Source of the DNA: Giardia intestinalis
Lineage: Eukaryota
Assembly (NCBI GenBank): GCA_000002435.2
Contig: CM018790.1
Reading direction: 5' to 3' (one strand)
DNA: 64,000 nt
Shown here: in pieces, positions 4,465-22,281 of the stretch
How positions within the stretch are numbered: position 1 is the stretch's first letter
Layout of the letters: each line of letters starts with the position of its first letter
Program-made: the position numbers and the translations under genes
The notes under the pieces: model-generated
Database searches by the model: none
The model's input: only the letters and a program-made list of their open reading frames with translations
What the model was told of the DNA's origin: nothing

Positions 4465-7400
4465 CTACATGAGCCCAAAGCCTTCGCAGCACTCGATGGC
4501 GCAGAGAAGCCTGTTCATGAGTGTTTCCTTTGAGCTGTAAGAAGGCAGACAAAGTATGTTAAAACAGGTATGGGCACCAGGCAATCGAGAGTCATCATCT
4601 CCATTTGGAATTATTTTAAGTCCTATGTTCTGCACGCCGCCAGCTGGCACCCTGTCGGAGCCGGTGATGAAGCGAAGGAGCCGCCGCTGCTGCTCTTGAG
4701 TCAGCTCTGCAACAATCCTCCAGAAGTTCTTTATATTAGGATGAGAGCTAGAATATGGGTTCTCGTAAGCTGTGAACGGCTCTAGAAGAGAGAAGTTCAG
4801 GTCTACTTCTCCGGTCAATGCCAGGTCCAGGTCAGACGCTGTGAACATGGCTAACGAGCGTGCCTTAGCCATACTAAGGAAGCCCGATCGGATGAATTCA
4901 AATATCTTTTTATTATATATCGTTGCAATTTGTTTGAGACGAATAAATAATGGTAAGGTTCGCAGATTGACCGGCAAAAGCTCTATATCATAAGGGGCTG
5001 TCAAGATATGGTGTCTATCTTTGACCAGCTCCTTAAGCTGCCACAGGATAGAGTTGGGAGGAAAACTATTAGAACAGAGAAAATCGCCGAAGTGTGAGAT
5101 TGTACGAACGCTGACAGTCCGGTTCATGGATACCAGTTCTTCGCTGACGATTTCTGTTAAGATGGCTCCGAGACCGACAAAAGTGAGAATAGGGTCACTA
5201 GACTCTTGTAAATTGACAGTCAACTGTGAGTCTTCGTTGTGAGCGTGTTTCCAGAGATTAGTGAGCGAGAAATACAGCTCCTCATCAACATCGTGCAAAT
5301 CCTCTCGTGTAATTACTGTGTAAGAGTGCCCTAGTAAAAGCTTGAAGAAGATAGGAGGAAATATTGAGGAAACGGTAGCGCCACTCACAAGCGAGATCCC
5401 CAACATGGCCCCAAGCTGGCAAAAGAGATTACGTAGATCATAGAGATAGCGTTCCTGAGTTGGTGACAGTGCATACTTCTCCGTAGTAAGAAAGTATGGG
5501 TCGTGGTTGGTACAATCTCTGATGCGCTGCCAATTAATATAATAGTATTGTGTCTCTGAATTAAACGTGAAATAGCCCTTGTGGTCAGTAATGAATGCTG
5601 GGAGCAAGTCATTGAATAGCTCTCGAGACGGGCCGCCAAAGTCTACGGCCGCCTCTCCCGAGAACTGAACTCTGATGGGTCTTCTAAGCAGAAGCCGGTG
5701 GACCGGGGAGAGCCACTCGTAAGATAGTTCTTCAGCTGCAAAGGACATGAAATACGCCAGGAAGTCTCCTGCAAGGGTCTTCCTCTCAGCGTTGATGCAG
5801 AGGAACGGGGATTGCCTCGAGCAGCGAATCATATACCCCAGTTCATACAACAAGATATTCAGCTTCGTCTGAGGATTCAGTAGAAACGGATATGAGCAGA
5901 AGGTGAAGAGTTTGGAAATAGCATGCTTATTTGTTTCCACTTCGCCGACTTTACCTACTATATTTTGATCAGCGTGTCTCGGTATGGCCAAGTGCAGCAT
6001 GTCTAGCATTCTTTCGTGGTTAGAATTGTAGATAGATGCAACAGTATCCGTAGTTGCGGTATTGCGAGGTACACTGATAATCGATCCTTCCACCAGACGA
6101 AAGGAACTTGTTTTGCGCTGAACAGGAGCGCTCGGCTTACGTAGCTTGTAGTAGCATCTAGGGCCTAAATATTGCTGCAGACGGGAAATCTCATATCCCA
6201 ACAGCTGGTCTAGAAGAGCTTCATCTAGGTCGAGGCTCGCAGTGACTATGTCCTCGTTGACATCCTGCAACGCTGTTCTTAACTCTTGAGGTATCAAGCT
6301 TTCTAATTGCAAATAAGCTTTGCTGGCCCTCAAAAAGTAGTTGTCTGGGTCGAACAATATTGCAAGGCATTGAGCATCGATTCTCCAATCGTAGGACGGT
6401 GATGATAGGAACTTATTGTGGAAGAGATCATTTGGAATAATTGGAACCATGTCCAGGCGCTGCACATCATCAGTAGCTCCTGCTAAGAATATTGTTTGCT
6501 GCAAGTTAGGTGGTAGAAGAAAAGATAGTGCGTCTGCTATAGATCTGAGATTACCATCGTTTAGGCACTGATGCTGTTGAGATATCCGTTCATAGATTTG
6601 TGGAGAGAGTTGGTTGTAGTTCAAGAGGCTCTTCAGTTGATTAGCTATTTCAGAATTAGCCAGTTGTGGAGTGGAATAACTGATTTCGAACAGCACCTGC
6701 GGTGCGATAAATGGAAACGTATAGCTTGTGAAGTTGTTGGACACGTAGAGTAACCTAGAAAGCTCACAAAGAGAACTCAGTGTGTGGTTAAAGTCCAGGA
6801 TGTCCACGAGAGTAAGCCTGTTGACATCATACGTATACTTTGACTGAGAATTCTCAGACCAAAATATCGGATCGTTAATCGGATAAACGATGCAGTGCTC
6901 CGCTCCAATTATTCTAGTGAACTGCCTAGGCTGGTCAAAACTATACACGTGGGCATTCCTGATAGGAGCACTGGGCTTTTGTTGAAGAATTCTTTCTAAG
7001 GTATTATTAATTGCAGCATTAGATAGGCGAACTAATGTGGTCAGTATGTGTACTGAAGTGTCTAGAGGAAGCGTGTTAAGAAAGGCACGCATCTTAATGC
7101 AAAGACGTAGACGTATGCCTGTATTTTCTTGCAGCGCTAAAAGGACGCTAGCTATTGAGTCTAAAAGGTGTGAACTAAGATTGAAGTAGCGTTCTGTCGA
7201 GAAGAGAAGCAGAAGAAGCATAAAAACATGCGCATCGGAACAGAAAAGAGACGGCTTGACGGCAATTGTTGCGAGAGCAGATTTGAAAAGGTCACCAAGC
7301 TTATTCATGAAGGCCAGTATGGGGAGCGGATCCTCACACTTATCATACTGCAAAAGAATTATCTCTTGAAAGAGTGTATAATTAAGATAGGCGTCGTGGA

Positions 7401-7941
7401 ACGTGGCGCAATTGTCCAGCAAAAAGTGCACGACTCCATCAGGACTGCCGCATCCGTGACACAGAGAAGTAACCAGATTAGCTAGCGCATCAAGGCTAAA
7501 AAACCTTCCCAGCACTTGCTTGTTATATGTCAAGAGCTTAGGCATATATTGCTCTAGAAATGCCCTATTAGAAGAGGACGGGTCCTGGAAGTTAACATGC
7601 CAAATAAGATGATTGAGCGGCCTGGCTGAATAGACGGTTGCAGAGAAGATGTCTGGATCGTCAAGATTGCGGACAACATGCATGACTCCTCTTTGCCACA
7701 TAAGCAGAATATGGCGGATAGACGGCTTGCATATGATGGAAGAACCGTGCGACCCAAGAAGCTCCTTCGCCAGATGCACTGTATCTTGAGGTGTCCACCC
7801 TTCTCCTCTGTGTCCACCATAGCTAAATCCAGAGGATGAAGCGCAATAGGAGTTGCTGCACTCTGCACTGCCACAGCCCTTCAGCAGCTGGACAGACAGG
7901 ATCGCCACCTCCATCGACGTAGGGGTGTGCTTGGCTTTCAT
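4465..7941 (-). CDS. HECT-domain E3 ubiquitin-protein ligase
   Basis: The C-terminal ~350 aa carry HECT signatures: ...GEAAVDFGGPSRELFNDL..., ...LPGAHTCFNILCLPSYSSKETLMNRLLCAIECCEGFG (catalytic Cys in TCFN). The start is a genuine ATG (cat at 7939-7941). The N-terminal 800 aa are unrecognisable. Confidence 0.8.
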   Translation of the reverse strand: MKAKHTPTSMEVAILSVQLLKGCGSAECSNSYCASSSGFSYGGHRGEGWTPQDTVHLAKELLGSHGSSIICKPSIRHILLMWQRGVMHVVRNLDDPDIFSATVYSARPLNHLIWHVNFQDPSSSNRAFLEQYMPKLLTYNKQVLGRFFSLDALANLVTSLCHGCGSPDGVVHFLLDNCATFHDAYLNYTLFQEIILLQYDKCEDPLPILAFMNKLGDLFKSALATIAVKPSLFCSDAHVFMLLLLLFSTERYFNLSSHLLDSIASVLLALQENTGIRLRLCIKMRAFLNTLPLDTSVHILTTLVRLSNAAINNTLERILQQKPSAPIRNAHVYSFDQPRQFTRIIGAEHCIVYPINDPIFWSENSQSKYTYDVNRLTLVDILDFNHTLSSLCELSRLLYVSNNFTSYTFPFIAPQVLFEISYSTPQLANSEIANQLKSLLNYNQLSPQIYERISQQHQCLNDGNLRSIADALSFLLPPNLQQTIFLAGATDDVQRLDMVPIIPNDLFHNKFLSSPSYDWRIDAQCLAILFDPDNYFLRASKAYLQLESLIPQELRTALQDVNEDIVTASLDLDEALLDQLLGYEISRLQQYLGPRCYYKLRKPSAPVQRKTSSFRLVEGSIISVPRNTATTDTVASIYNSNHERMLDMLHLAIPRHADQNIVGKVGEVETNKHAISKLFTFCSYPFLLNPQTKLNILLYELGYMIRCSRQSPFLCINAERKTLAGDFLAYFMSFAAEELSYEWLSPVHRLLLRRPIRVQFSGEAAVDFGGPSRELFNDLLPAFITDHKGYFTFNSETQYYYINWQRIRDCTNHDPYFLTTEKYALSPTQERYLYDLRNLFCQLGAMLGISLVSGATVSSIFPPIFFKLLLGHSYTVITREDLHDVDEELYFSLTNLWKHAHNEDSQLTVNLQESSDPILTFVGLGAILTEIVSEELVSMNRTVSVRTISHFGDFLCSNSFPPNSILWQLKELVKDRHHILTAPYDIELLPVNLRTLPLFIRLKQIATIYNKKIFEFIRSGFLSMAKARSLAMFTASDLDLALTGEVDLNFSLLEPFTAYENPYSSSHPNIKNFWRIVAELTQEQQRRLLRFITGSDRVPAGGVQNIGLKIIPNGDDDSRLPGAHTCFNILCLPSYSSKETLMNRLLCAIECCEGFGLM

Positions 7942-8033: not shown

Positions 8034-10298
8034 TTACGTTACATCATGTTCCTTCTGCTCAAGAAATCCATCAAGTAGAATGAGCATAGGTTTGAACACG
8101 TACTCAGACTCTTTCTTTAGAGACGCTAGCTCATTATTCTGAAGAGGCTTGGCTGAGTACAGTGCATCTAGAAAGACAGCCATCAAAACCAAAAGAGGCA
8201 CAAGCGCCCAGATACACACCATGGTTAGAGTGTTAGTTGCTAGCCGCTGCAAGCCCAGCACTCCTATCTCATATAAAAGGACACAGATTGCCATCTCCAA
8301 AGCGCTGCCATCAAACCGTCCACCCTCAAAGATCCTGTGCCGTTCTAGATGGTGTACGTGACAGCGTGCATACAGAAAATCGGCACCAAAGAGCTGTGCG
8401 GCAGAGGCCATCATAAAGCAGAGCAGAATGGCCAGCGTGATCATAAGAATGCGAAGAAGAGTAAGAAACGCGTTTTTGCGCTTAATCCGCCGCACTGCCC
8501 GGATATTATATTCCAGCCGCCTTAGAATGCTAACGATCACTGCGTGGCAATCCCTGAGAATACGTTCGTTGTCAACAAAAATGGATTGCTCAAGGGACCA
8601 ACAGAGCTCATCGGTAGATGCTAAGAGCTCACCGATTCGGCTGGTAGAGGCACAACTTTGGTGTAAGCCGTTTCCAAGACCAACCTCTGAGCTTGCTGGG
8701 CCCTGAGAAATGATAGAGTGAGCATCATAAGTATTTGGGTTTACGACCCGGAGCATGGTGCCGCATTGGCTAATGAGCTTTCCGGCCATTGCGTTAACGA
8801 TTGCTTGTGAAGCAGCAAGGGTCTTAACTACATTTGACTGCTGCAGCGAATCAGCTAGTGTATAGTTCTGCTGCTGAGAGGGTGCCACTGACGAAGAAAG
8901 GAACTTATCCTGCTTGTCTGCAGATAAGGTCAAAGTAGAGATGCCCAAATGTGTTGGCTCCTGCGAGAGCTGTGGCAGTGCACCTGTTTCTACTTCGCTA
9001 GCTCCATACTGTTGCGGTCTGTTGCTTAGAGTAGCACTCAATTTAGTGACTTCAAGAACTATGTTTGACGTGTCGACAAGCGCTCTTGTTTGCTCATTAA
9101 GACATCTTATAGTATCGCATATATCTTGTTTTAGCCTCGTCGTTTTAGCCTGCTGGTTTGCCATTTTTGCATTGCCATAATGGGGGATACAGACTAGATT
9201 CATTTTGAAACGTCTGTATGGGGAGAGCAATATGAGTGACGAGGCGTACTCCTGAATGGCGTCAATACACGATTGTTTATCTGTAAGACGATCACACTTA
9301 GTAATTAGAATAGTTGTTTTTCCAAAAAGCTCATTTGATGAACTGATGTAGTGTAGTAGCCTTCCATTTTCCACAGAAAAGCCTTCGGTTTTTGTATCTA
9401 TACCACAGCTTGTTGTAAAAAGGATCTTATCAACTTGATGAAAGAGCGCCTTGATTGTGTTTTCAAACACTCGAGTTTCTGCCTTAGAAAAAAGCGAGCT
9501 CGGCTTGGCTTGTTTGCCTCGCTTGGACAGGTTGCTCAGAGAGCTGAGAATTCCTTTTGAAGTCGACGACTCTATCACGTAGCGGTAGAAAAATGGTACT
9601 TCGATGAAAATAAAGGGACACGTAGGCCCCATTAACTGGTCAGATGCTCCATGAAGTATGTTGTTACTCTGTGGTAAATGTGAGACAGACTTTTCTAACT
9701 TATCTATCGAATTATAGAGGGTAGCAGAATTAGACGAGACATCTTTATATCTAGAAGCCGAAGTAGATGAAGAATCACGTCCCCTTGGCAGCTGCTTAGT
9801 GCCCTCAGCAGTCGACTTAGTAGAGTAGTACATGGATTTCCCGGTGGGGGAGAGGTTCGCGTTGTGAAACCCACTTTGTAATTGGCTCTGGTCTGTTGAA
9901 AGCACCGATCCAGGAGTCTGCTTACTATATGAATTAAAAGCGCTGCAACGAATATGCGAGCCTGGGAATCCGTTTTCACGAAAGCAAGCATGGATGGATG
10001 GCAGTGTGTCTGCAAGACTGTCTGTAAAATAGGCAACATCGTTGACGCAAGGCACGTATATATTGATGCACATTCCCTCTGAGCGAAGCCTTGATCCGGT
10101 GATGTGACTTATAAGCGACGATTTTCCGCTGTAGTCCTCGCCAAGAACCAAAATCACTGGTCGTGGATTGGGAGCCTTAAAGGGGGTTGTAATGCGAAGT
10201 CTTTGACCAGCTGAGATTATGTGATGTACATATAGGTCTGAGATGGCTGCTCGTGTTTGCAAAGCCACATCTAAGCCTTGATCTGTATTAGAGATCAT
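8034..10298 (-). CDS. Dynamin-superfamily P-loop GTPase with C-terminal transmembrane segments (EHD/Sey1/mitofusin-like topology)
   Basis: G1 motif VILVLGEDYSGKSSLISHITG resembles the dynamin/EHD pattern G..S.GKSS. G4-like motif ILITKCDRL matches TKxD. A ~120-aa Ser-rich low-complexity insertion lies between them. Two long hydrophobic segments sit near the C-terminus (LTLLRILMITLAILLCFMMASAA... and ...VLGLQRLATNTLTMVCIWALVPLLVLMAVFL). Start is an ATG at 10296-10298. Confidence 0.5.
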   Translation of the reverse strand: MISNTDQGLDVALQTRAAISDLYVHHIISAGQRLRITTPFKAPNPRPVILVLGEDYSGKSSLISHITGSRLRSEGMCINIYVPCVNDVAYFTDSLADTLPSIHACFRENGFPGSHIRCSAFNSYSKQTPGSVLSTDQSQLQSGFHNANLSPTGKSMYYSTKSTAEGTKQLPRGRDSSSTSASRYKDVSSNSATLYNSIDKLEKSVSHLPQSNNILHGASDQLMGPTCPFIFIEVPFFYRYVIESSTSKGILSSLSNLSKRGKQAKPSSLFSKAETRVFENTIKALFHQVDKILFTTSCGIDTKTEGFSVENGRLLHYISSSNELFGKTTILITKCDRLTDKQSCIDAIQEYASSLILLSPYRRFKMNLVCIPHYGNAKMANQQAKTTRLKQDICDTIRCLNEQTRALVDTSNIVLEVTKLSATLSNRPQQYGASEVETGALPQLSQEPTHLGISTLTLSADKQDKFLSSSVAPSQQQNYTLADSLQQSNVVKTLAASQAIVNAMAGKLISQCGTMLRVVNPNTYDAHSIISQGPASSEVGLGNGLHQSCASTSRIGELLASTDELCWSLEQSIFVDNERILRDCHAVIVSILRRLEYNIRAVRRIKRKNAFLTLLRILMITLAILLCFMMASAAQLFGADFLYARCHVHHLERHRIFEGGRFDGSALEMAICVLLYEIGVLGLQRLATNTLTMVCIWALVPLLVLMAVFLDALYSAKPLQNNELASLKKESEYVFKPMLILLDGFLEQKEHDVT

Positions 10299-10371
10299 CT
10301 AGCTTTTATTTCTCATTCACTGGTTAATTTCGAGCTAAGTTCCACCCGTGCAGCGGACCAGCCCTTCCCGC

Positions 10372-12003
10372 GCTTTGGGCCCGGGCGGGCACGCTCTGGC
10401 CTGCAGCGCCGCGACCTTCCAGGGCGTCTCCGGGGCCCGGCGAGGCACACCCGCCGCCGCGGGCTGTGCCGGCCGGCCACAGGCGGCTGCTGTTCGCTTC
10501 CTCGCGACCGCTTGCCACCCAGGGTCCTGCCTGTCGCTGAGGGTCCTCGGATCAGGCCCTGTCTCCGGCCAGCCGATCGAGCCGCTACCGGATCACCAGG
10601 AAGAGCAGACCCACCCATTCTGCGGCCGACACACTACCACTCTCGGAAGCGCTACGCACATAGAGAGTCTACAGCGCACTCAGCCTGACAGCTGTGATGA
10701 GCCAATACTCGACAACGCAGCATAGACAAGGGCACCGTCACGCATAGACGCCTCCACATAGTTTGCTTTGGTTCATTACGGCAAGCTTGCCAGCTGCTGT
10801 CCGACTAAATTACTCAAAGAGAACGGCTGCGGTGGACAACATTCTTGCTCATTGAATTTGAGATCCGATGATTCGGATGCCATCTAGTTCTGGTGGAGAA
10901 AGAGATCTCCATGAGTCCCTGCTGCAGGAATCACCAGTTCAGCTCTTGCACTACTGTTTCAGGGACACTCCGTCCCCTTTGCTTACTCCCCTTGGGCGCT
11001 AGAACTTGGGCACTGCCTATGTCTTGTTACATGGGTCGATGGCGCCCCCAACTTCCGTCGCAATGTCTCGTAGGGACCACCGACGTTAGTAGAGGCGTAG
11101 CTCAGATGGCGAGAGGCTGGGGCCTAACGATTAACATTGCTAAGCGTAAGAGCATCCAGAAGGTATGAAAAGTTTTCTTCCTGGGAACCCAGTCTCGAAA
11201 GAGCGGCTATCTGCAGCCCTCAGGGCGATCGCGAGTACATCAAAGCATCTGAAGCTGGTAATTGATACGCCATATGACTTCTACGAATCCTTCAACGGAC
11301 TGGTCAGGGTCTCTAGCTGAGATACTTGTTTCGGACCTGAAGAAGCCCATTGCGTTTTTGGCTATACAGGACAGCGGCAGCCTGGGGGTCCACCTACTGG
11401 GCGTCTACTACAGCAGCTGGCGGTGCCTGACATCATCGAGTAGATGGGTGCCGGTTGTAGAGAGAGACGGCCTAACGACGAACCGGTCCTGATCGCTTCT
11501 GATGCTTTGGATGACGCCTCGACAGACCGAAGCATCACCCCAAGTGTGCTGTGCAGATGGACCAGCCCACACGTCACTGAGCCAGACACACTGCACAGGA
11601 TGGGCGCCGATGCGGTCTCGTGCTGGGTGACGGAGCACCTCTGCGACCCATGAACCGAGGACTGGACCTCTCCCCTGATACCAGCGCATGGGAGTACTCC
11701 ATCGACATCCACGAATGCGTACCACAACCTCAAGATAGAGGCGCATGGGGAGCGCGCCCTCCCGGTCATACTCGGAACCGATGATCGCTTCATGGGGAGA
11801 CGAAGAGGCACCCGAGGAACGGGGTAGACACCGGGGTCGTGGCGTGCGATCTTTGTCGTAGAGCACCAAGACCTTGAAGTACATGGCCAGAGTCAACTGC
11901 TCTGAGGCCAGATCGCCGTGGATGATGCAGACCCGAGACAACGGATGCTCACTAGACATCAGACGAGAATTGACCCCGACGGGCCAGAGAGAAGGGAGGA
12001 ATC
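10372..12003. repeat. Left arm of a large inverted repeat; the outer ~1.16 kb is near-identical to the right arm and the inner ~0.47 kb is ~85% identical with indels
   Basis: Reverse-complement identity to 18108-19766. Track ORFs 10893..11168(+) and 18975..19250(-) encode identical 91-aa strings. 11262..11492(+) and 18651..18881(-) encode identical 76-aa strings. 10348..10725(+) and 19418..19768(-) are identical over 116 aa. The outer boundary was read directly: identity stops after ...cccgggcccaaagc. Outer 10380-10640 is ~75% GC. Confidence 0.8.
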
Positions 12004-12523
12004 CTAGAGGCACCGCAAGAAACAGCAGGGACTCTTAAAAGAGACGGGGCATAGGAGTTCTTCCGCCGGGATTCGAGAACACCCGACTCTCGGATTTCTG
12101 ATCTCAGCTAATGTATGAGTGAGAGACTTGCCTAGAGTGGTGGTGGCTCGCATGAGAGACCACTCAGATAGCAAATGAGAGTAAATTAGGGGACCTTATT
12201 GAAAAAGAAACGGTGACCCGAGCTTCACCCATCGTGAAACAAGACCAAGGAGAAGCGCCATGGGTAGAGCAGAGAGTCTGCGAGAAGGCCTGAACCCCGA
12301 AAGGACCGATGTACGCATTCGGTCTGAGCATGCACCCATGAAACGGTAGAGAAATGTACCGGGCCCTGGATGTATCACTGGAGAGGACCCTCTTGTTATG
12401 TTATCAATGACCAACAGTCGTCTCTGAACTGGTCAGAGCTTGAGCGAGGATCACACGCAAGATCTCTGGACAATCCTCAGATAGCCCCAGCAGCATAGTG
12501 TAATAAGCTACATACAACAATGC

Positions 12524-12538
12524 GTTTACTACCTAAGT
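12524..12538 (-). promoter_or_regulatory. VSP-type extended polyadenylation signal immediately 3' of the stop
   Basis: On the mRNA strand the sequence reads TAG ATGT ACTTAGGTAGTAAAC. This matches the conserved Giardia VSP 3' motif ACTYAGRTAGTRAAY, which contains the general poly(A) signal AGTRAAY. Confidence 0.6.
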
Positions 12539-12542
12539 ACAT

Positions 12543-15245
12543 CTACGCCTTCCCGCGGCAGAGGAACCACCAACACAAGAAGCCCACAAGACCACCTACA
12601 ACAACGATCACAGCAACAGAGATGCCCGCGATCGCGCCAGTGCTGAGCCCGCTCTTGTTGACGCTTCCGCCGTTGTCAGTGCCATCCGTCTTGACGTAGC
12701 AGATGACAGAACCACTATTACCAGTTGGAGGATCGCAGCTTGCGCAGTTAGCGACACCCTGGATGCTACCGCTTGTCTCTGTACACAGCTTGCATGCTTT
12801 ACTGGCGTCCAAGTAACGGCCAGGTGGACAGGCGCTGCACTTATCGGGTTGATTGGCCACGGTGCATGTGGCACAAGTGGAATCGCATAATGGACACATG
12901 TTCGAGACAGCTGTCAAGCCATTCGCACATGTTTGGCATTTTCCATCCCCAGTGGGCGTTGTGCAGATGCTCTTCCCGGGGAGCCTGTCAGTCTTGTAGC
13001 ATCCGCCCTCCTGGATGAAGTATCCGGCGGCGCAGACCGTGCAAGCACCGTTAGCGGCAGTGGTGCAGAACAGAGTCCTGGCCGCATTGCTCGTGCAGAC
13101 GCCATTGAGCGGCACGTTGCTCCCCTTGCACTTCGAGCAGTACTTGGTACCTCCAATTGTTAGGCCGCACGTCTCGCACTCCGGGCCTTCCACGCATTGC
13201 TCCACGCACGTGCCGCCCTCATTAAGCTTGCTTTCGTCGGCGTACCTCAGCATCTTCCCGGCGGGACAGGCCGTGCACTTGGAAGCGCCGGCCCCGCTGC
13301 ACTCCGCACAGGAGGGGTCGCAGGGCGCGCACGTTTGTCCGGATAGATACGTTCCGACAGGGCAGGCATCTAAGCATGCCTTCTTCGTCGGGGTCAGATG
13401 CTTGCCTGGTTCACACGCCTCGCAAGTCTGCTTGTCCGAGGAGCACGTCTGGCAGTTCTCGATCGGGCAGTCGGCCGGCGCTGGGTTGCACGCCCTGTTA
13501 TCCCCGCTGGCCACGAATCCCGGCTTGCACGCCTCGCACGTCGCCTTGTCCGAGGAGCACGTCTGGCAGTTCTCGATCGGGCAGTCGGCCGGCGCTGGGT
13601 TGCACGCCCTGTTATCCCCGCTGGCCACGAATCCCGGCTTGCACGCCTCGCACGTCGCCTTGTCCGAGGAGCACGTCTGGCAGTTCTCGATCGGGCAGTC
13701 GGCCGGCGCTGGGTTGCACGCCCTGTTATCCCCGCTGGCCACGAATCCCGGCTTGCACGCCTCGCACGTCGCCTTGTCCGAGGAGCACGTCTGGCAGTTC
13801 TCGATCGGGCAGTCGGCCGGCGCTGGGTTGCACGCCCTGTTATCCCCGCTGGCCACGAATCCCGGCTTGCACGCCTCGCACGTCGCCTTGTCCGAGGAGC
13901 ACGTCTGGCAGTTCTCGATCGGGCAGTCGGCCGGCGCTGGGTTGCACGCCCTGTTATCCCCGCTGGCCACGAATCCCGGCTTGCACGCCTCGCACGTCGC
14001 CTTGTCCGAGGAGCACGTCTGGCAGTTCTCGATCGGGCAGTCGGCCGGCGCTGGGTTGCACGCCCTGTTATCCCCGCTGGCCACGAATCCCGGCTTGCAC
14101 GCCTCGCACGTCGCCTTGTCCGAGGAGCACGTCTGGCAGTTCTCGATCGGGCAGTCGGCCGGCGCTGGGTTGCACGCCCTGTTATCCCCGCTGGCCACGA
14201 ATCCCGGCTTGCACGCCTCGCACGTCGCCTTGTCCGAGGAGCACGTCTGGCAGTTCTCGATCGGGCAGTCGGCCGGCGCTGGGTTGCACGCCCTGTTATC
14301 CCCGCTGGCCACGAATCCCGGCTTGCACGCCTCGCACGTCGCCTTGTCCGAGGAGCACGTCTGGCAGTTCTCGATCGGGCAGTCGGCCGGCGCTGGGTTG
14401 CACGCCCTGTTATCCCCGCTGGCCACGAATCCCGGCTTGCACGCCTCGCACGTCGCCTTGTCCGAGGAGCACGTCTGGCAGTTCTCGATCGGGCAGTCGG
14501 CCGGCGCTGGGTTGCACGCCCTGTTATCCCCGCTGGCCACGAATCCCGGCTTGCACGCCTCGCACGTCGCCTTGTCCGAGGAGCACGTCTGGCAGTTCTC
14601 GATCGGGCAGTCGGCCGGCGCTGGGTTGCACGCCCTGTTATCCCCGCTGGCCACGAATCCCGGCTTGCACGCCTCGCACGTCGCCTTGTCCGAGGAGCAC
14701 GTCTGGCAGTTCTCGATCGGGCAGTCGGCCGGCGCTGGGTTGCACGCCCTGTTATCCCCGCTGGCCACGAATCCCGGCTTGCACGCCTCGCACGTCGCCT
14801 TGTCCGAGGAGCACGTCTGGCAGTTCTCGATCGGGCAGTCGGCCGGCGCTGGGTTGCACGCCCTGTTATCCCCGCTGGCCACGAATCCCGGCTTGCACGC
14901 CTCGCACGTCGCCTTGTCCGAGGAGCACGTCTGGCAGTTCTCGATCGGGCAGTCGGCCGGCGCTGGGTTGCACGCCCTGTTATCCCCGCTGGCCACGAAT
15001 CCCGGCTTGCACGCCTCGCACGTCGCCTTGTCCGAGGAGCACGTCTGGCAGTTCTCGATCGGGCAGTCGGCCGGCGCTGGGTTGCACGCCCTGTTATCCC
15101 CGCTGGCCACGAATCCCGGCTTGCACGCCTCGCACGTCGCCTTGTCCGAGGAGCACGTCTGGCAGTTCTCGATCGGGCAGTCGGTCGATACTGATGTACG
15201 GTGAGCCTGTGTCACTGTAAAAACTAGGAGAAATCCTACCAACAT
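12543..15245 (-). CDS. Variant-specific surface protein (VSP) with 15 tandem 38-aa Cys-rich repeats
   Basis: Signal peptide MLVGFLLVFTVTQA. CXXC-rich ectodomain. One C-terminal TM followed by the invariant Giardia VSP tail ...GFLCWWFLCRGKA. ATG at 15243-15245, TAG stop at 12543-12545. The 38-aa unit DCPIENCQTCSSDKATCEACKPGFVASGDNRACNPAPA is repeated about 15 times. Confidence 0.9.
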   Translation of the reverse strand: MLVGFLLVFTVTQAHRTSVSTDCPIENCQTCSSDKATCEACKPGFVASGDNRACNPAPADCPIENCQTCSSDKATCEACKPGFVASGDNRACNPAPADCPIENCQTCSSDKATCEACKPGFVASGDNRACNPAPADCPIENCQTCSSDKATCEACKPGFVASGDNRACNPAPADCPIENCQTCSSDKATCEACKPGFVASGDNRACNPAPADCPIENCQTCSSDKATCEACKPGFVASGDNRACNPAPADCPIENCQTCSSDKATCEACKPGFVASGDNRACNPAPADCPIENCQTCSSDKATCEACKPGFVASGDNRACNPAPADCPIENCQTCSSDKATCEACKPGFVASGDNRACNPAPADCPIENCQTCSSDKATCEACKPGFVASGDNRACNPAPADCPIENCQTCSSDKATCEACKPGFVASGDNRACNPAPADCPIENCQTCSSDKATCEACKPGFVASGDNRACNPAPADCPIENCQTCSSDKATCEACKPGFVASGDNRACNPAPADCPIENCQTCSSDKATCEACKPGFVASGDNRACNPAPADCPIENCQTCSSDKATCEACKPGFVASGDNRACNPAPADCPIENCQTCSSDKQTCEACEPGKHLTPTKKACLDACPVGTYLSGQTCAPCDPSCAECSGAGASKCTACPAGKMLRYADESKLNEGGTCVEQCVEGPECETCGLTIGGTKYCSKCKGSNVPLNGVCTSNAARTLFCTTAANGACTVCAAGYFIQEGGCYKTDRLPGKSICTTPTGDGKCQTCANGLTAVSNMCPLCDSTCATCTVANQPDKCSACPPGRYLDASKACKLCTETSGSIQGVANCASCDPPTGNSGSVICYVKTDGTDNGGSVNKSGLSTGAIAGISVAVIVVVGGLVGFLCWWFLCRGKA
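13417..15184. repeat. Perfect tandem array, 114-bp unit x ~15.5, inside the VSP coding sequence
   Basis: Unit gcctcgcacgtcgccttgtccgaggagcacgtctggcagttctcgatcgggcagtcggccggcgctgggttgcacgccctgttatccccgctggccacgaatcccggcttgcac repeats head-to-tail with no visible mismatches. The first copy (13417-13530) is degenerate. This array produces the spurious long ORFs in three + frames. Confidence 0.9.
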
Positions 15246-15878
15246 TAGCCGGGTTAGTATGCCACTGCTCTTCTGTCAGGCCGGTGTATTGGCCGCGAGC
15301 AGTGAGAGACAGCCGCTCTTGCTCTCTCGATCAGTTGGACTGAAGAAGGATAAGATAGGAGCACGCCCACCGGAGGCCGGCTGATAGTGCAGTTCCCCCT
15401 GACTTCGATAGGAACAGGACCAGTGATGACTAGACTCAGACCGCACCTCTCTTGTGGAATGATTGTTCGGGGCGCACTCCTGTACATTGCTGTCACTGTA
15501 TCACTGGGCCCGCCTGCAAGTGCGCTCAGAGATCCCACGGGTAAGCTGCGCCCACTTCTCGACCGTCCGGAGACGATGGCTAGTTGTGGATAACATACTA
15601 AGAGCTCCTCTCCATCGATGCATCCAGAGCTCAGTGTGGTCCCAGTCGGCGTGCCCTGTCGAGGGTGCTCCATGTCGGCCTCCAGGATCCGGCCTGCTCA
15701 GGGCCATACAAGCCGTTAGTATGCCTCTCCTTGGCCTGCCATCGACAGCTCGCACTGGCCGCCCTGCTCGGGTAGTAGCCAAGGTCACTCCAAAGGGTGG
15801 CTCCGGATTGCAGTTAAGATTAGCGATGGCTGTTGGCTCCACTCCCCGTTCCAACTGCCGCGGAGGGCGCCCTGGGAG

Positions 15879-18016
15879 ATGCTAGTAACAGTGCAGTTAG
15901 CGGCTTTGCAGAGCCGATGGGCGCTGGTGGCATCCCCGTGCTCAGCGGGGGCCTTCAGTGTTATCTACTCTCCCAAGGGATGCCCCTACCTCGCCGTGAG
16001 AGAGATCCGGCTCGACGGTCTGGATCAGCACGGTGTGGATGCTAAAGCGTGGGCTGGTCGCCCTTCTTAACATCTTTCACCTGGGAGTCCTCAAGCACTA
16101 TCAAGTGATTGAAGACGAGGGCCTCATCTACGTCGTCACGGACCGGCACGACAAGACCCTTGAGCGCCTCCTCACCGAGCACAAACGAAGGAAGATCCCC
16201 GTCCCTATCGCTGTGATCCTCTCTGTCATGAAGCAGGTCGCTGCCGCCCTCGCCTACCTCCACGGCCTCAGCGGAGTGGGTGCCGACGGTCGCCCCTACA
16301 AGGGCCTCGTCCACCGCGACCTCAAGCTTGCGAACGTCCTCGTCAGCGCAGATGGTGAACACTTCATCATCGCCGACTTCGGCCTCTGTAAGGACGCCCT
16401 GAGATGCGGGAGCACCATTGCAGGCACGGCAGTATACATGGCCCCCGAGATTCTCCTCCGTAATGAGACCAGCCATGCTTCCGACGTGTGGAGCCTCGGG
16501 GTCATCATTTATGAATTAGTAACTCTGAGGAGACCGGACTTCTTGGGGGGCAAGGAGCCAGCAGAGGTCTTCGTCGACGGGTGGAGGCCGGACCTGAGCG
16601 GTGTCACTGATGGCTTCATAAAGAGTGTTCTGGAGAGGATATTCGTGCTGGAACCAGAGGAAAGACTGACGGCCAGGGAGCTGCACGAGACGCTCACTGC
16701 GGCTGACATCCCAGTTAGTGAGCTGAGGGGCAGTGCGTGATGCTGAGGTACAAGTGCGGATCCTTGGAGGCTGCGCTGAATGGCGCTAACGCCAGGATCG
16801 CGCTGCTGGAAGAGGAGGTTAAGACTAAGTCTACTAAGATTGACGCACTCGAAGAGCAAGGTAAGGAGCACCTAGCCATGATTAAGGCACTGGAGAGTAG
16901 GCTTGCACAGTTCGGTGACAGGATGAACACGACTGACCCTCAGTCCAGCCTCCTTTTGCTGCCCAGGCTGATGCGTGCCGCGCATACGAATAGCATGGAA
17001 ACCGTCTGGATGCTGCTTGAAGAAGGACTCGGCGTTGGCTAGCGTGACGAGCAGGGGCACGTCAGTCCCGTCGAGTTGCTTGTTGGGGAGGAGAGGGGCC
17101 TCCAGGACAGGAACGGCTGGACCCCCTGATGATCACCACAGAGGAGGGCTATGCAAGAGCTGCCTCCCTTCTGGTCCCATATGAGAAGGACCGGATCGGC
17201 AGCGAAGGCAAGACGGCCTTGGTGATTGCGGCAGAGGCAGGACATGGAACTGTGGTGGAGGCCATCGACCCAACCGATGAGAATGGCGTCACGGCGCTCA
17301 TGCGAGCTGTTAATAGAAACTACGTGGGGCCTGTGAAGGCAGTCATACTTAGCCAGAGAAGGAGGAAAACATACAAAGAGGTCATAGCAAGCGGATGGTA
17401 CATGCGCACAGGAACAGCTCTGATGATGGCTGCGGCACATGGATACGCAGAAATAGTAGAACTGCTAGTGGAACACGAAAAGGGGAGAAAGTAGGCGGTT
17501 GGGCCGCTCTCATATTCGCGGCACGGTGCGACCGTTCCAATGACCCCCTGGTGGACTATATTGGGCGCGTTGAGCTTTTGATGGAGTATGAGAGCAATAT
17601 CTCAGGGTGGACGGAGCTCATGTATGCAGTAGCACGAGGGCAGAAGGGAGTGTAGAGCTGCTCAAGCAGGAGACTGGGATACAGAATAACGATCATCAGA
17701 CTGTCCTCACGTGGACGGTGTGCAATGATCACCCAGAGTGTGTCAGGCCCCTGCTGAAGGACGAAGGCTGCATGCAAACGACCAAGGGGGGACCGCCCTT
17801 ATGAACGCAGCATATAGCAACACCGTGGAATGTGCAAGACTTCCTAAAGAAAACGAGAAGGAGCTGAAGACAATTTCTAGCTGCCATGGTCACTCGCCCG
17901 GTACCACTGCCCTCAATATCGCTAAGAAGAAGGATCGCAAAGAGATAGTAGACATCCTCCCAAACGAGATCTACTCTGCTTCATCAAGGTCGGCTTGCCA
18001 GCTCCTGTCCGAGTAA
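15879..18016 (+). pseudogene. NEK-family protein kinase - coiled-coil - ankyrin-repeat gene, disrupted by at least six frame changes
   Basis: Kinase subdomains I-II (SAGAFSVIY..., LAVREI) lie in frame 0 at 15879-16070. Subdomains III-XI lie in frame 1 at 16033-16740 (HRDLKLANVLV, ADFGLC, YMAPE, DVWSLGVIIYEL); that segment 'starts' with GTG. A coiled coil (LEEEVKTKSTKIDALEEQGKEHLAMIKALESRLAQ) lies in frame 0 at 16737-17042. Ankyrin repeats (GKTALVIAAEAGHGTVVEAI, GTALMMAAAHGYAEIVELLVEH, GGTALMNAAYSNTVECA, GTTALNIAKKKDRKEIVDIL) are spread over frames 2/1/0/2 between 17129 and 18016. Confidence 0.6.
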
Positions 18017-18107
18017 ATCCGTCCAGGATCCGGAGTCCGGATGCCGCCCACTCTGGAGAAGAGCCTTGTGCATCCCGCCTAGGAGCCATTGGGTGCTCCA
18101 CTATATG

Positions 18108-19766
18108 CTTCGGGGCGTCCCTTCTCTCTGGCCCGTCGGGGTCAGCCATCGCCTGATATCTAGTGAGCACCCGTTGTCCCGGGCCTTGCGTCGGTCACGG
18201 CGATCCTGTCTCAAGAGCAATTGACTCTGGCCATGTACTCTGGAGTAGCTTTGTGGTGCTGATGCTCCATGACGAAGATCGCGCCCCACGACCCCGGGTG
18301 TCGACTCCCGTTCCTCGGGGTGCCTCTTCATCTTCTCGTGGAGGGCACCATCTGTTCCATTATCAAGGATGCGCTCCCCGTGCGCCTCTGTCTTGGAGTC
18401 ATAGTACGCATTCGTGGATGCCAGCGGAGCACTCCCATGCGGTGGTGTCGGGGGAGAAGTATGGCCCTCCTATTCATGGATCGAAGGGCGCTCTTGCAGG
18501 CGGTCCGTCACCCAGCACGAGACCGCATCGGCGCCCATCCTGTGCAGTGCGTCTGGCTCAGTGACGTGTGGGCTGGTCCATCTGCACCGCAAAGCACGCT
18601 TGGGGGAATGATTCGGTCTGTCGAGGCGTCATCCAAAGCATCAGAAGCGATCAGGACCGGTTCGTCGTTAGGCCGTCTCTCTCTACAACCGGCACCCATC
18701 TACTCGATGATGTCAGGCACCGCCAGCTGCTGTAGTAGACGCCCAGTAGGTGGACCCCCAGGCTGCCGCTGTCCTGTATAGCCAAAAACGCAATGGGCTT
18801 CTTCAGGTCCGAAACAAGTATCTCAGCTAGAGACCCTGACCAGTCCGTTGAAGGATTCGTAGAAGTCATATGGCGTATCAATTACCAGCTTCAGATGCTT
18901 TGATGTACTCGCGATCGCCCTGAGGGCTGCAGATAGCCGCTCTTTCGAGACTGGGTTCCCAGGAAGAAAACTTTTCATACCTTCTGGATGCTCTTACGCT
19001 TAGCAATGTTAATCGTTAGGCCCCAGCCTCTCGCCATCTGAGCTACGCCTCTACTAACGTCGGTGGTCCCTACGAGACATTGCGACGGAAGTTGGGGGCG
19101 CCATCGACCCATGTAACAAGACATAGGCAGTGCCCAAGTTCTAGCGCCCAAGGGGAGTAAGCAAAGGGGACGGAGTGTCCCTGAAACAGTAGTGCAAGAG
19201 CTGAACTGGTGATTCCTGCAGCAGGGACTCATGGAGATCTCTTTCTCCACCAGAACTAGATGGCATCCGAATCATCGGATCTCAAATTCAATGAGCAAGA
19301 ATGTTGTCCACCGCAGCCGTTCTCTTTGAGTAATTTAGTCGGACAGCAGCTGGCAAGCTTGCCGTAATGAACCAAAGCAAACTATGTGGAGGCGTCTATG
19401 CGTGACGGTGCCCTTGTCTATGCTGCGTTGTCGAGTATTGGCTCATCACAGCTGTCAGGCTGAGTGCGCTGTAGACTCTCTATGTGCGTAGCGCTTCCGA
19501 GAGTGGTAGTGTGTCGGCCGCAGAATGGGTGGGTCTGCTCTTCCTGGTGATCCGGTAGCGGCTCGATCGGCTGGCCGGAGACAGGGCCTGATCCGAGGAC
19601 CCTCAGCGACAGGCAGGACCCTGGGTGGCAAGCGGTCGCGAGGAAGCGAACAGCAGCCGCCTGTGGCCGGCCGGCACAGCCCGCGGCGGCGGGTGTGCCT
19701 CGCCGGGCCCCGGAGACGCCCTGGAAGGTCGCGGCGCTGCAGGCCAGAGCGTGCCCGCCCGGGCCC
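18108..19766. repeat. Right arm of the inverted repeat (reverse complement of 10372-12003)
   Basis: See left arm. The inner boundary was found by comparing the reverse complement of 11800-12003 with 18108-18330: ~85% identity, lost beyond 18108 and 12003. Confidence 0.8.
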
Positions 19767-19863
19767 AAAGCACAGATGATGGTTCATTTCATCTATTTAC
19801 TAGAAGGCAACTAGCCGAATAGTCTGATAAGTAGCCTCTTCTTATGCATGTTAACTGAATAAG

Positions 19864-22281
19864 TCATATAACTGGGATATAACAGCATCCAATAATAACC
19901 CAGACAGCCGCAATGGTTTCTGCATATCCAAAGACAGAAACGTGCAGTCCTATACGCAGTTTATCCCCATGTGCCTCAACTATACTACGACTTTTATCGT
20001 TTGAAAGAAGCGTCTCTACAATAGGTGGAGCATAGAATCTTAGGCTCCCCATGACCTGCAACGGATAAACTATCAGTGTTTCACGAGAAGAAACATAATT
20101 TTTGAGCGCTACCTTCAAAGTCTCATTGCCTAACTGGCCGATAGTTCCACCCATGAGGCGTGTCTGTTCCCAGGATGCTACTGTGGGCGCCAATATCATA
20201 GAAAGCTGTTCAGATCTGGGTGTTGTCAGTCCAAGTGTTTGCCTCCGTGCTTCAATAAGCCTCCATATATCTGCTGTTAAATAACTGGACAGTGTAGCGG
20301 CCAAGGAGGGGCCAAACGGTTTTAGTATATTCTGGTTTTGAAGCAAACGTGGAAGACGGGTAGAAGTCACTAGATAATCATCGTCATCCATGTTATAGTG
20401 ATAGACATAGCTATTATAGACGCGTTCTATCATGGACTGATTGAAAGCTTTCCAAAATAAGGGCCTGGATATATCTAGAGATATGCCATGTATAAGTTGT
20501 TTTTCAGGTATGTATTGTAGTCTATTTGTACTTTGAATATTAACAAAAAGCATGGTTTCATTGAAAATGCAGTCTATTGTCTCATACGGAAAATGAATAA
20601 CAGTTCCAGCAGAATCAGAGTGTTTATCTATCTTGTATTGACCTTCTGTTGGCAACGAGTGCAGCTCTATCATACCTCCATGATCCGATAACAAGCAGTC
20701 CCAGAATTGAATCACCTGTGCACAGAGTGTGATAACGAACGCAGAGCGGACACTCCTATTTCCAGACACATCCGATTTTAGCCCTGGAAGAGCGCATGTG
20801 CCCAGAGCAACGAATGCCGGTATCTGATATCCTCTCAGCATCGAGCACAAGAGAACTGCCTTGTCAAACGGTGTACCAGCACCGACAGATAGCGTGGTGA
20901 TAACTCGAGACCAGACTAGCTCGTTGTTTCCTGATAGTCCAGCGGTGGCTGGAGTTGATTGGCGTCCAGGTGCTGGCATAAGTTGGATAAAGCGCATGCA
21001 ATAGCTAGCCGTTGGAAGGTACGAGCTTGTAAAGGGAGTGATAAGAGTGGAAATAGGGACCACCATTCCATCATCCCGAAGAGCATGGAGCTGAACAAAA
21101 CGCTTGTCTAGTCCAACCGAACTGGGCTGCGAGCCAAGATAGTCTCTCATAAATACGCTTGCGGTCCTATCATATTCTGCAAGTGCTCTGGAGACTGATC
21201 TTTTTGAGGTTGTTAATATGTCTCTAAGGGAGCGGAAGGAGGCTTCTTCAGAGACATCTGCACTGGTCAGAAGGGGCGTGAAAGTGATTGAAACGTTAAG
21301 AGTACCTAGCCGTATTTTTTCGGTTGGAGTGTTGGGTCCTGGTGCTTGAGAATAAGGGTACATGGGAACACTAACTGCCCCAGCCAGCAGAGAATTGGCC
21401 TTGGTCAGCTCAGTGAAGAACTCCACAAAGCCAACTCGTCCATGTGCATGAAGATACTGCATTCCTGAATAGCTGTGGAACACCGCAAGAAAGGTAAGGT
21501 CAGTTACTTTGAGATCTGAAATTGCTCTGAAAGAAGTCAGCGGAGTGGAGGATATACAGAATCGAATCTTTGAAAACGCTAACGGTGCAAGCCCTATAGT
21601 AGCATCACTTCTTTCACACTTGATTGGCGGACAGACATGCCGCAAATTTCCAAGAGCTATTGTGAGGGTAATCACGCCTTCCTCACTGACGCCAGATTGC
21701 CCACCAAGATTGTTACTACACGGAGGAGCAAGCTCACCCGAGGTGATCTGAACCTCTAGATGTTGTTCTACAAGAGTTCTAGACTCTCTAGCAGCGTGAA
21801 GCGCTGTAAGCATTGAGACGGAATCTCTAACCACTTCACTCATAGCACGTGTTGCCTGACGCTCTGTACTATTTAAATCATCGTGTGTATTCATAGACAA
21901 TACATTAGGCTGTGTGCCCCCCTGGACAGACTCCAAATGGCGGCGAGCTTGCTCTCTTCTTTCCATACGTTCCTCTGCAGACATTGATATGCAATCTGTT
22001 GGCTCTGCAGTGGCCCCAGAGCACTTCGACCTGTGAATAGCATATGCCTCCTTCACTGTTTGCTTATCAAAGGCCTGGTCAAAGTATCTTTCTGCCAGTG
22101 AGTGTACTAAGTTGGACTTTTCCAGGTATACTAAGAGACGCTTTTCTACGTCCCGTGGGTTCATATCTCTATCTATCTTTAGCTCTGGGTCCTTGGACTC
22201 ACTGAGTTCCTGGAAAATGCTCTGCAGCTGCTCTTTTGTAAGCTCTCTTAGAACGAACGCCTTAATGCTCTGGGAGTCCAT
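19864..22281 (-). CDS. Hypothetical protein with a possible transglutaminase-like (TGL) domain
   Basis: 805-aa ORF with ATG at 22279-22281. The segment GTPFDKAVLLCSMLRGYQIPAFVALG resembles the Cys-containing core of TGL domains (G.C..A.L...LLRA.GIPAR.V.G). There is no other recognisable motif. Confidence 0.45.
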   Translation of the reverse strand: MDSQSIKAFVLRELTKEQLQSIFQELSESKDPELKIDRDMNPRDVEKRLLVYLEKSNLVHSLAERYFDQAFDKQTVKEAYAIHRSKCSGATAEPTDCISMSAEERMERREQARRHLESVQGGTQPNVLSMNTHDDLNSTERQATRAMSEVVRDSVSMLTALHAARESRTLVEQHLEVQITSGELAPPCSNNLGGQSGVSEEGVITLTIALGNLRHVCPPIKCERSDATIGLAPLAFSKIRFCISSTPLTSFRAISDLKVTDLTFLAVFHSYSGMQYLHAHGRVGFVEFFTELTKANSLLAGAVSVPMYPYSQAPGPNTPTEKIRLGTLNVSITFTPLLTSADVSEEASFRSLRDILTTSKRSVSRALAEYDRTASVFMRDYLGSQPSSVGLDKRFVQLHALRDDGMVVPISTLITPFTSSYLPTASYCMRFIQLMPAPGRQSTPATAGLSGNNELVWSRVITTLSVGAGTPFDKAVLLCSMLRGYQIPAFVALGTCALPGLKSDVSGNRSVRSAFVITLCAQVIQFWDCLLSDHGGMIELHSLPTEGQYKIDKHSDSAGTVIHFPYETIDCIFNETMLFVNIQSTNRLQYIPEKQLIHGISLDISRPLFWKAFNQSMIERVYNSYVYHYNMDDDDYLVTSTRLPRLLQNQNILKPFGPSLAATLSSYLTADIWRLIEARRQTLGLTTPRSEQLSMILAPTVASWEQTRLMGGTIGQLGNETLKVALKNYVSSRETLIVYPLQVMGSLRFYAPPIVETLLSNDKSRSIVEAHGDKLRIGLHVSVFGYAETIAAVWVIIGCCYIPVI

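Follow-up and report, generated by a model that had tools for sequence, protein, structure and literature searches.

Sequence profiles and structure prediction support a diverged, EHD-like dynamin-superfamily G domain on a predicted transmembrane protein of Giardia intestinalis

Introduction

The endomembrane system of Giardia is pared-down and highly divergent, and few of the proteins that remodel its membranes are known. Two dynamin-superfamily proteins have been reported so far in the literature: the classical dynamin GlDRP and Gl9605, a BDLP-like dynamin-like protein that was identified in 2020 in the GlPXD3 interactome (PMC7058353). The earlier view of Giardia as having a single dynamin-related protein (PMC5377515), repeated in a preliminary description of the locus studied here, is therefore outdated. 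Here, we analyse GL50803_17385, a gene of G. intestinalis located in a stretch of 64,000 nucleotides (assembly GCA_000002435.2, contig CM018790.1; hereafter the window, meaning the whole stretch at its full length). Its product would be a third, unannotated dynamin-superfamily protein and a testable candidate for a role in the architecture of the endoplasmic reticulum (ER) or of the peripheral vacuoles.

Among described members of the superfamily, the EHD ATPases (EHD1-4 / RME-1; PDB 2qpt, 4cid, 5mtv, 5mvf) are the best match to GL50803_17385 in both profile and fold comparisons. Atlastin and Sey1 combine two transmembrane (TM) spans with an amphipathic tail (PMC9804665), and the preliminary description, made from the DNA letters and their translation, had placed the Giardia protein with such membrane-fusion members or with the mitofusins. 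The analyses presented below support another assignment, namely a highly diverged G domain of the dynamin superfamily that, among characterised proteins, is closest to the EHD ATPases and not to Sey1/atlastin or mitofusin. The association of a two-TM anchor with a G domain that is EHD-like but has rewired switches would be new, and GL50803_17385 would be a previously unrecognised member of the superfamily.

An EHD-like G domain in GL50803_17385

The gene corresponds to the open reading frame (ORF) 8034..10298 on the minus strand (as do all features of the protein given below), which starts with an ATG in an AT-rich context (gaaataaaagctagATG) and encodes 754 amino acids (aa) followed by a stop codon, in agreement with the preliminary description. 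The product is 100% identical to XP_001706166.1 / UniProt A8BLR7, annotated as "hypothetical protein GL50803_17385" of Giardia intestinalis WB, and the ORF is the complete coding sequence of this gene. The G domain, predicted to be cytosolic, covers aa 1-410 (9069..10298), with an N-terminal helix (aa 6-34) and a long C-terminal helix (aa 374-410).

The two motifs recognised initially in the translation, the G1 motif or P-loop (GEDYSGKSS, aa 53-61; 10116..10142) and the G4 motif (TKCD, aa 333-336; 9291..9302), are both present and occur once each in the protein. A GxxxxGK[ST] pattern followed 100-320 aa further on by [NT]KxD was obtained with a frequency of only 0.00044 in 50,000 composition-preserving shuffles. 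In the family alignment, composed of eight sequences with identities down to 20%, residues G53, E54, G58, K59 and S61 of the P-loop are invariant (8/8), G4 has the form [TS][KR]xD in all orthologues with an invariant D336, and C77, P228 and F229 (both in strand beta3), P235, K327 and T328 are invariant as well. The P-loop is thus no chance match, a possibility that the preliminary description had raised itself.

Searches with the full protein against Pfam, NCBIfam and the PDB (phmmer) produced nothing significant, and a PDB profile search with five close Giardia sequences yielded spurious antibody matches to a Ser-rich insert only. When the hidden Markov model (HMM) of the insert-trimmed family (A3) was searched against all PDB sequences, the top match was the dynamin Vps1, with a marginal E-value of 0.0021, followed by EHD2 (0.083), Fzo1 (0.12) and Drp1 (0.43), interleaved with unrelated P-loop proteins. 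The match to Vps1 consists of two collinear stretches, the P-loop and a block running from alpha2-beta4 to G4. After removal of the inserts, a match to the Pfam model Dynamin_N was found in four of five members.

Pairwise profile comparisons with HHalign, using target sequences checked as identical to PDB entries, ranked EHD2 first, with a score of 53.8 (Prob 92%). The scores were 28.1 for dynamin-1 and 27.2 for both mitofusin-1 (MFN1) and H-Ras, in all three cases over the P-loop only, and 15.9 for atlastin-1 (ATL1), which is at background level; 100 shuffled EHD2 sequences scored 14.9 +/- 2.7, with a maximum of 23.3. A segment of the Giardia profile free of the P-loop still aligned with EHD2 residues 151-228 with a score of 32.4, about 6 standard deviations (SD) over shuffles (14.9 +/- 3.0), compared with 16.4 for dynamin-1 and 21.0 for Ras. 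Along the alignment with EHD2, GQYSTGKTS corresponds to GEDYSGKSS of Giardia in G1, PTTDC to SEGMC in switch I, IIDTPG to FIEVPF in G3, ERVDLIILLFDAH..ISDEFSEAIGAL to HQVDKILFTTSCG..TEGFSVENGRLL in alpha2-beta4, and VVLNKAD to ILITKCD in G4, where the TKVD of Vps1 also aligns. We consider this sequence evidence for EHD likeness as good, not overwhelming.

The AlphaFold model of the N-terminal 440 residues, computed with the disordered inserts included, has a predicted local distance difference test (pLDDT) of 70-89 in the core and a predicted template modelling score (pTM) of 0.52. This model displays the dynamin-type extended fold of a large G domain, and its five best Foldseek matches are all EHD4/EHD2. 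The proposal of a dynamin-superfamily G domain on a C-terminally TM-anchored protein is thus backed by the Vps1/EHD2 profile matches and by the AlphaFold/Foldseek comparison, which agrees with HHalign in placing EHD proteins on top.

Conserved P-loop and rewired switches

The preliminary description was silent on a second characteristic of the family, the absence of two catalytic motifs. The switch I region (aa 68-84, GSRLRSEGMCINIYVPC; 10047..10097) is without its conserved Thr in the family alignment and in HHalign: neither Thr nor Ser is conserved there across the eight sequences, and C77 is invariant. Strand beta3 and the degenerate G3 motif (CPFIFIEVPFF, aa 227-237; 9588..9620) align with SISIIDTPGIL of EHD2, with E233-V-P-F at the site of DxxG. 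The DxxG signature is missing in all eight sequences, being replaced by EVPF in G. intestinalis, EVPY in G. muris, EVPH in the orthologue P0020 and KLPC in the orthologue P0021. The following helix alpha2 and strand beta4 (aa 272-297, including FHQVDKILFTTS; 9408..9485) are EHD/dynamin-like and match ILAVTAANVDL of Vps1 as well as the EHD2 stretch ERVDLIILLFDAH. This combination of a strictly kept P-loop and base-recognition Asp with a lost switch I Thr and DxxG is unusual for the superfamily and bears on the origin of pseudo-NTPases.

Two disordered regions interrupt the G domain. The Ser/Thr-rich tract reported previously is real and lies inside the domain, between strands beta2b and beta3, but is shorter than the ~120 aa first given (~97 aa, aa 126-222; 9633..9923; 30% S+T). 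AlphaFold predicts this insert to be disordered (pLDDT <50 over aa 125-225), and it differs in length and composition among orthologues, from S/T/N/Q-rich in G. intestinalis to Gly/Ala/Arg-rich in the GC-rich P0021. Its presence had been described as unusual, but the G domains of fungal Vps1 and Dnm1 carry an 'insert A', and a G-domain insert is not exceptional in itself. A second S-rich loop (aa 238-271; 9486..9587; 32% S+T), located after the G3 position in switch II, is likewise predicted to be disordered (pLDDT <50) and is absent from P0021.

Linker, membrane anchor and topology

The architecture of the C-terminal half is deduced from hydropathy and from a low-confidence full-length model. 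A poorly conserved, low-complexity linker (aa 411-480; 8859..9068), whose length varies widely among orthologues and whose pLDDT is low, precedes long helices predicted at aa 481-519 and aa 553-602 (8478..8858), which could correspond to a putative stalk; conserved blocks, e.g., IGELL..TDELC, are present in this region of the family alignment. Two hydrophobic spans follow, as originally noted: TM1 (aa 610-636; 8391..8471; hydropathy peak 2.52), with the basic sequence RRIKRKN ahead, and TM2 (aa 690-714; 8157..8231; hydropathy peak 2.62), both found in all four lineages. A weaker middle hydrophobic segment (aa 665-687) exceeds the threshold in G. intestinalis only, and a three-TM topology was rejected, this segment being charged in P0020 and P0021.

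The loop between the two spans (aa 637-689; 8232..8390), of ~40-60 aa across the family, contains two invariant cysteines, C646 and C672, and in Giardia a His-rich motif, RCHVHHLERH. Invariant residues of the membrane region in the eight sequences also include N609, R616 and Y676. The cysteines and the His-rich motif point to a disulfide bond or a metal-binding site in the loop, which is presumably lumenal or extracytosolic. Hydropathy revealed no N-terminal hydrophobic signal or signal peptide which, together with RRIKRKN before TM1, argues for a cytosolic N-terminal domain. From these features, the consensus topology would consist of a cytosolic N-terminal domain, TM1, a far-side loop, TM2 and a short cytosolic tail. 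This tail of 40 aa (aa 715-754; 8037..8156) is predicted to be helical, with a helix 721-746 present in the low-confidence full-length model only, and is weakly amphipathic (hydrophobic moment 0.37-0.52 across orthologues).

Comparison with other dynamin-superfamily proteins

GL50803_17385 shares with EHD proteins a collinear arrangement of the N-terminal helix, G1, the beta3/G3 position, alpha2-beta4 (VDxIxxxxxx...[ST][DE][EG]FS) and G4, as well as predicted helices flanking the G domain on both sides and a predicted association with membranes. In contrast to EHDs, the Giardia protein has no C-terminal EH domain (no EF-hand/EH Pfam match at E <= 10), which is replaced by the two TM spans and the 40-aa tail, and no KPFxxxNPF loop; its membrane binding would be integral and not peripheral, the switch I Thr and DTPG are replaced (by SEGMC and EVPF), two long disordered inserts are present and the Pfam thresholds of Dynamin_N/EHD_N are not reached. 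For lack of an EH domain and of the KPFxxxNPF loop, and given its integral membrane character and its subthreshold Pfam scores, GL50803_17385 is not a bona fide EHD protein.

The likeness to classical dynamins (Vps1, Drp1, dynamin-1 and Giardia GlDRP) concerns the top PDB match to Vps1 and the TKxD form of G4; unlike these proteins, GL50803_17385 has no detected middle/GED stalk or PH domain, is TM-anchored instead of soluble and has lost G2 and G3. With mitofusin/Fzo1 and the bacterial-type proteins BDLP, Cj-DLP, IniA and SynDLP, it has in common the insertion into membranes and helical bundles beside the G domain, the TM region being located near the C-terminus as in mitofusins. It differs from this group by a MFN1 profile match restricted to the P-loop, by the absence of canonical G2/G3 and of detectable HR1/HR2, and by the long, conserved loop with cysteines that separates the TM spans. 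The resemblance to atlastin/Sey1/RHD3 is limited to gross topology (a cytosolic G domain at the N-terminus, then helices, a pair of TM spans and a short helix at the C-terminus), with no sequence signal, TM spans that are not closely spaced, no GBP- or RHD3-type G domain, and loss of the catalytic motifs.

Conservation and distribution

GL50803_17385 is a real gene under strong purifying selection. In the comparison with the assemblage B orthologue, dN/dS is 0.105 for the whole gene, 0.017 for the beta3/EVP strand, which is the most constrained segment, 0.055 for TM1-loop-TM2 and 0.11 for the Ser/Thr-rich insert, these values being approximate because dS exceeds 1.

When 1.84 billion cluster representatives were searched exhaustively with HMMER, no more than four clusters were recovered, namely the group of G. 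intestinalis, the G. muris protein GMRT_20795 and two Logan assembly proteins of 843 and 967 aa. A word-seeded homologue search with the eight-sequence profile retrieved close Giardia matches only, and the same kind of search with a trimmed core profile gave no matches, generic P-loop and low-complexity words having probably swamped the candidate list. GL50803_17385 is thus confined to the Giardia lineage (Giardia and two relatives) and, this lineage being one of parasites, is parasite-specific by definition.

The Logan orthologues are 20-28% identical to the G. intestinalis protein and more divergent than that of G. muris; for this reason, the contigs that carry them may derive from undescribed or unsampled relatives of Giardia or from diplomonads. 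These contigs (L001, SRR31929897, 68.9-kb; L002, SRR14944320, 13.3-kb) are compact and syntenic with Giardia. L002 is markedly GC-rich, and the insert of its orthologue is Gly/Ala/Arg-rich where that of Giardia is Ser/Thr-rich.

The gene identifier GL50803_17385 is absent from the searchable literature, and the gene is not listed in the supplements of the Giardia organelle-proteome and interactome studies that were searched.

Possible functions and alternative explanations

We regard it as moderately likely that GL50803_17385 is a Giardia-lineage integral-membrane protein with EHD-like nucleotide-binding properties, acting as a membrane remodeller or scaffold. In such a protein, the cytosolic G domain (~aa 1-410) would be followed by the variable linker, the long helices of the putative stalk, TM1, the Cys-containing loop, TM2 and the short cytosolic tail. 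The P-loop and the G4 Asp would still bind a nucleotide, either ATP as in EHDs or GTP; since the P-loop Lys/Ser and this Asp are invariant, nucleotide binding has most likely been kept. Hydrolysis is probably slow, absent or non-canonical, because the switch I Thr and DxxG are replaced in every orthologue. As the most likely mode of action, nucleotide-dependent self-association of the cytosolic EHD-like domains, on a protein that resides in the membrane, would then scaffold, tether or shape an endomembrane, the ER and the peripheral vacuoles being candidates.

Several observations weigh against this interpretation. No curated model reaches its threshold, the Dynamin_N match scoring 12-16 bits (cutoff 27) over the P-loop only; the HHalign probability drops to 41-65% under other alignment settings, and the N-terminal helix by itself gives no significant EHD signal in HHalign. 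The family alignment is shallow (eight sequences, with an effective number of sequences, Neff, of ~2.5), so that the G-domain model is of moderate confidence only, and a full-length AlphaFold model built from five near-identical sequences had a pLDDT of 33 and was discarded as unusable. Finally, P0021 carries a Lys at the acidic, Mg-coordinating position of G3, which puts in question the retention of Mg-nucleotide binding in the family as a whole.

This Lys, the loss of G2 and G3 in every orthologue and the two long disordered inserts that break the domain beside switch II would all be expected of a nucleotide-dead pseudo-NTPase derived from an EHD/dynamin ancestor and used as a structural or protein-binding module without a nucleotide cycle. 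We find this alternative rather unlikely, since the invariance of G53, G58, K59, S61 and D336 down to 20% identity is hard to explain without nucleotide contact, and no segment of the gene is more constrained than the beta3/EVP strand. A homotypic fusogen, comparable to Sey1/atlastin in the ER or to mitofusin in the mitosome, in which trans-dimerised G domains and hydrolysis fuse two bilayers, would account for the overall layout, in which the G domain at the N-terminus is followed by helices, a pair of TM spans and a short terminal helix, as in atlastin and Sey1. Yet the ATL1 score is background, the MFN1 match is confined to the P-loop, and no orthologue has the switch I Thr or the DxxG of G3 on which the hydrolysis cycle depends; in addition, a conserved loop with two invariant cysteines keeps the TM spans apart, so that they do not form a tight hairpin, and the tail helix is only weakly amphipathic. 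With hydrolysis probably impaired, a hydrolysis-powered fusion cycle is less likely than nucleotide-gated self-association, scaffolding or tethering. For the mitosomal version, Giardia mitosomes have been reported not to fuse (PMC5377515), and the main text of a 2026 mitosome inventory mentions neither this gene nor the words 'dynamin' or 'GTPase'. Altogether, we judge the fusogen favoured in the preliminary description to be improbable. Among Giardia entries in UniProt there is presumably also one named 'Protein SEY1 homolog'.

The EHD likeness could also have arisen artificially from the shallowness of the alignment and from a bias of AlphaFold, GL50803_17385 being in fact a membrane-anchored fusion of an unrelated TRAFAC P-loop GTPase, e.g., an EngB/Era-like or Toc/AIG1-like one. 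The moderate confidence of the G-domain model and a faint NCBIfam EngB match covering G4 (E = 0.005, well short of the cutoff) go in this direction, but the sequence profile, which is independent of any structural model, also puts Vps1 and EHD2 first, and the segment free of the P-loop matches EHD2 151-228 specifically, and not Ras. The EngB/Era-like assignment was rejected on the basis of the fold and of the HHalign ranking, and an unrelated GTPase appears to us very doubtful.

A more elaborate version of the EHD-like remodeller or scaffold can be imagined, in which Giardia and its closest relatives would have evolved an integral-membrane derivative of an EHD-type ATPase, with the EH domain exchanged for a two-TM anchor, a lumenal loop carrying a disulfide or a bound metal, and rewired switches I and II. 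Such a protein would serve as a lineage-specific shaping, tethering or neck scaffold, e.g., at contact sites of the peripheral vacuoles with the plasma membrane or at those of the ER, and would represent a new membrane-anchored dynamin branch with a non-canonical nucleotide cycle. Taken as a whole, this scenario is speculative and its probability low.

Genomic environment

The gene GL50803_17385 adjoins on its downstream side a gene for a HECT E3 ubiquitin ligase of 1158 aa (4465-7941, minus strand), UBE3A/E6AP-like and with an N-terminal AZUL zinc-binding domain. A homologue of CEP76 (805 aa; 19864-22281, minus strand), identified by CEP76_C (E = 7e-21) and by a CEP76 peptidase-like domain, is located upstream. 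Synteny is kept in G. muris and in assemblage B: the orthologue has the CEP76 homologue on its upstream side and, on its downstream side, the HECT/AZUL E3 ligase and a helicase. CEP76 is directly upstream of the orthologue in both Logan contigs and is the upstream neighbour in every relative examined.

In the window, CEP76 and GL50803_17385 are separated by a GC-rich island of ~9.5 kb (10300-19800; 55-68% GC vs 43-49% in the flanks). The site of the island is the junction at which the two genes adjoin in the two Logan relatives; in G. muris, an ankyrin-repeat gene is found there. The island contains one intact gene for a variant-specific surface protein (VSP) of 900 aa (12543-15245, minus strand; Pfam VSP E = 3e-164) and no further ORF >235 aa, apart from those antisense to this gene, and has the appearance of an insertion or a break in synteny associated with the VSP. 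Long antisense ORFs cover the VSP gene, e.g., 13015-15204 on the plus strand, and are probably artefacts of GC-rich repetitive coding sequence; one of them has an odd score with the Pfam model tRNA_Me_trans_M, without a matched stretch.

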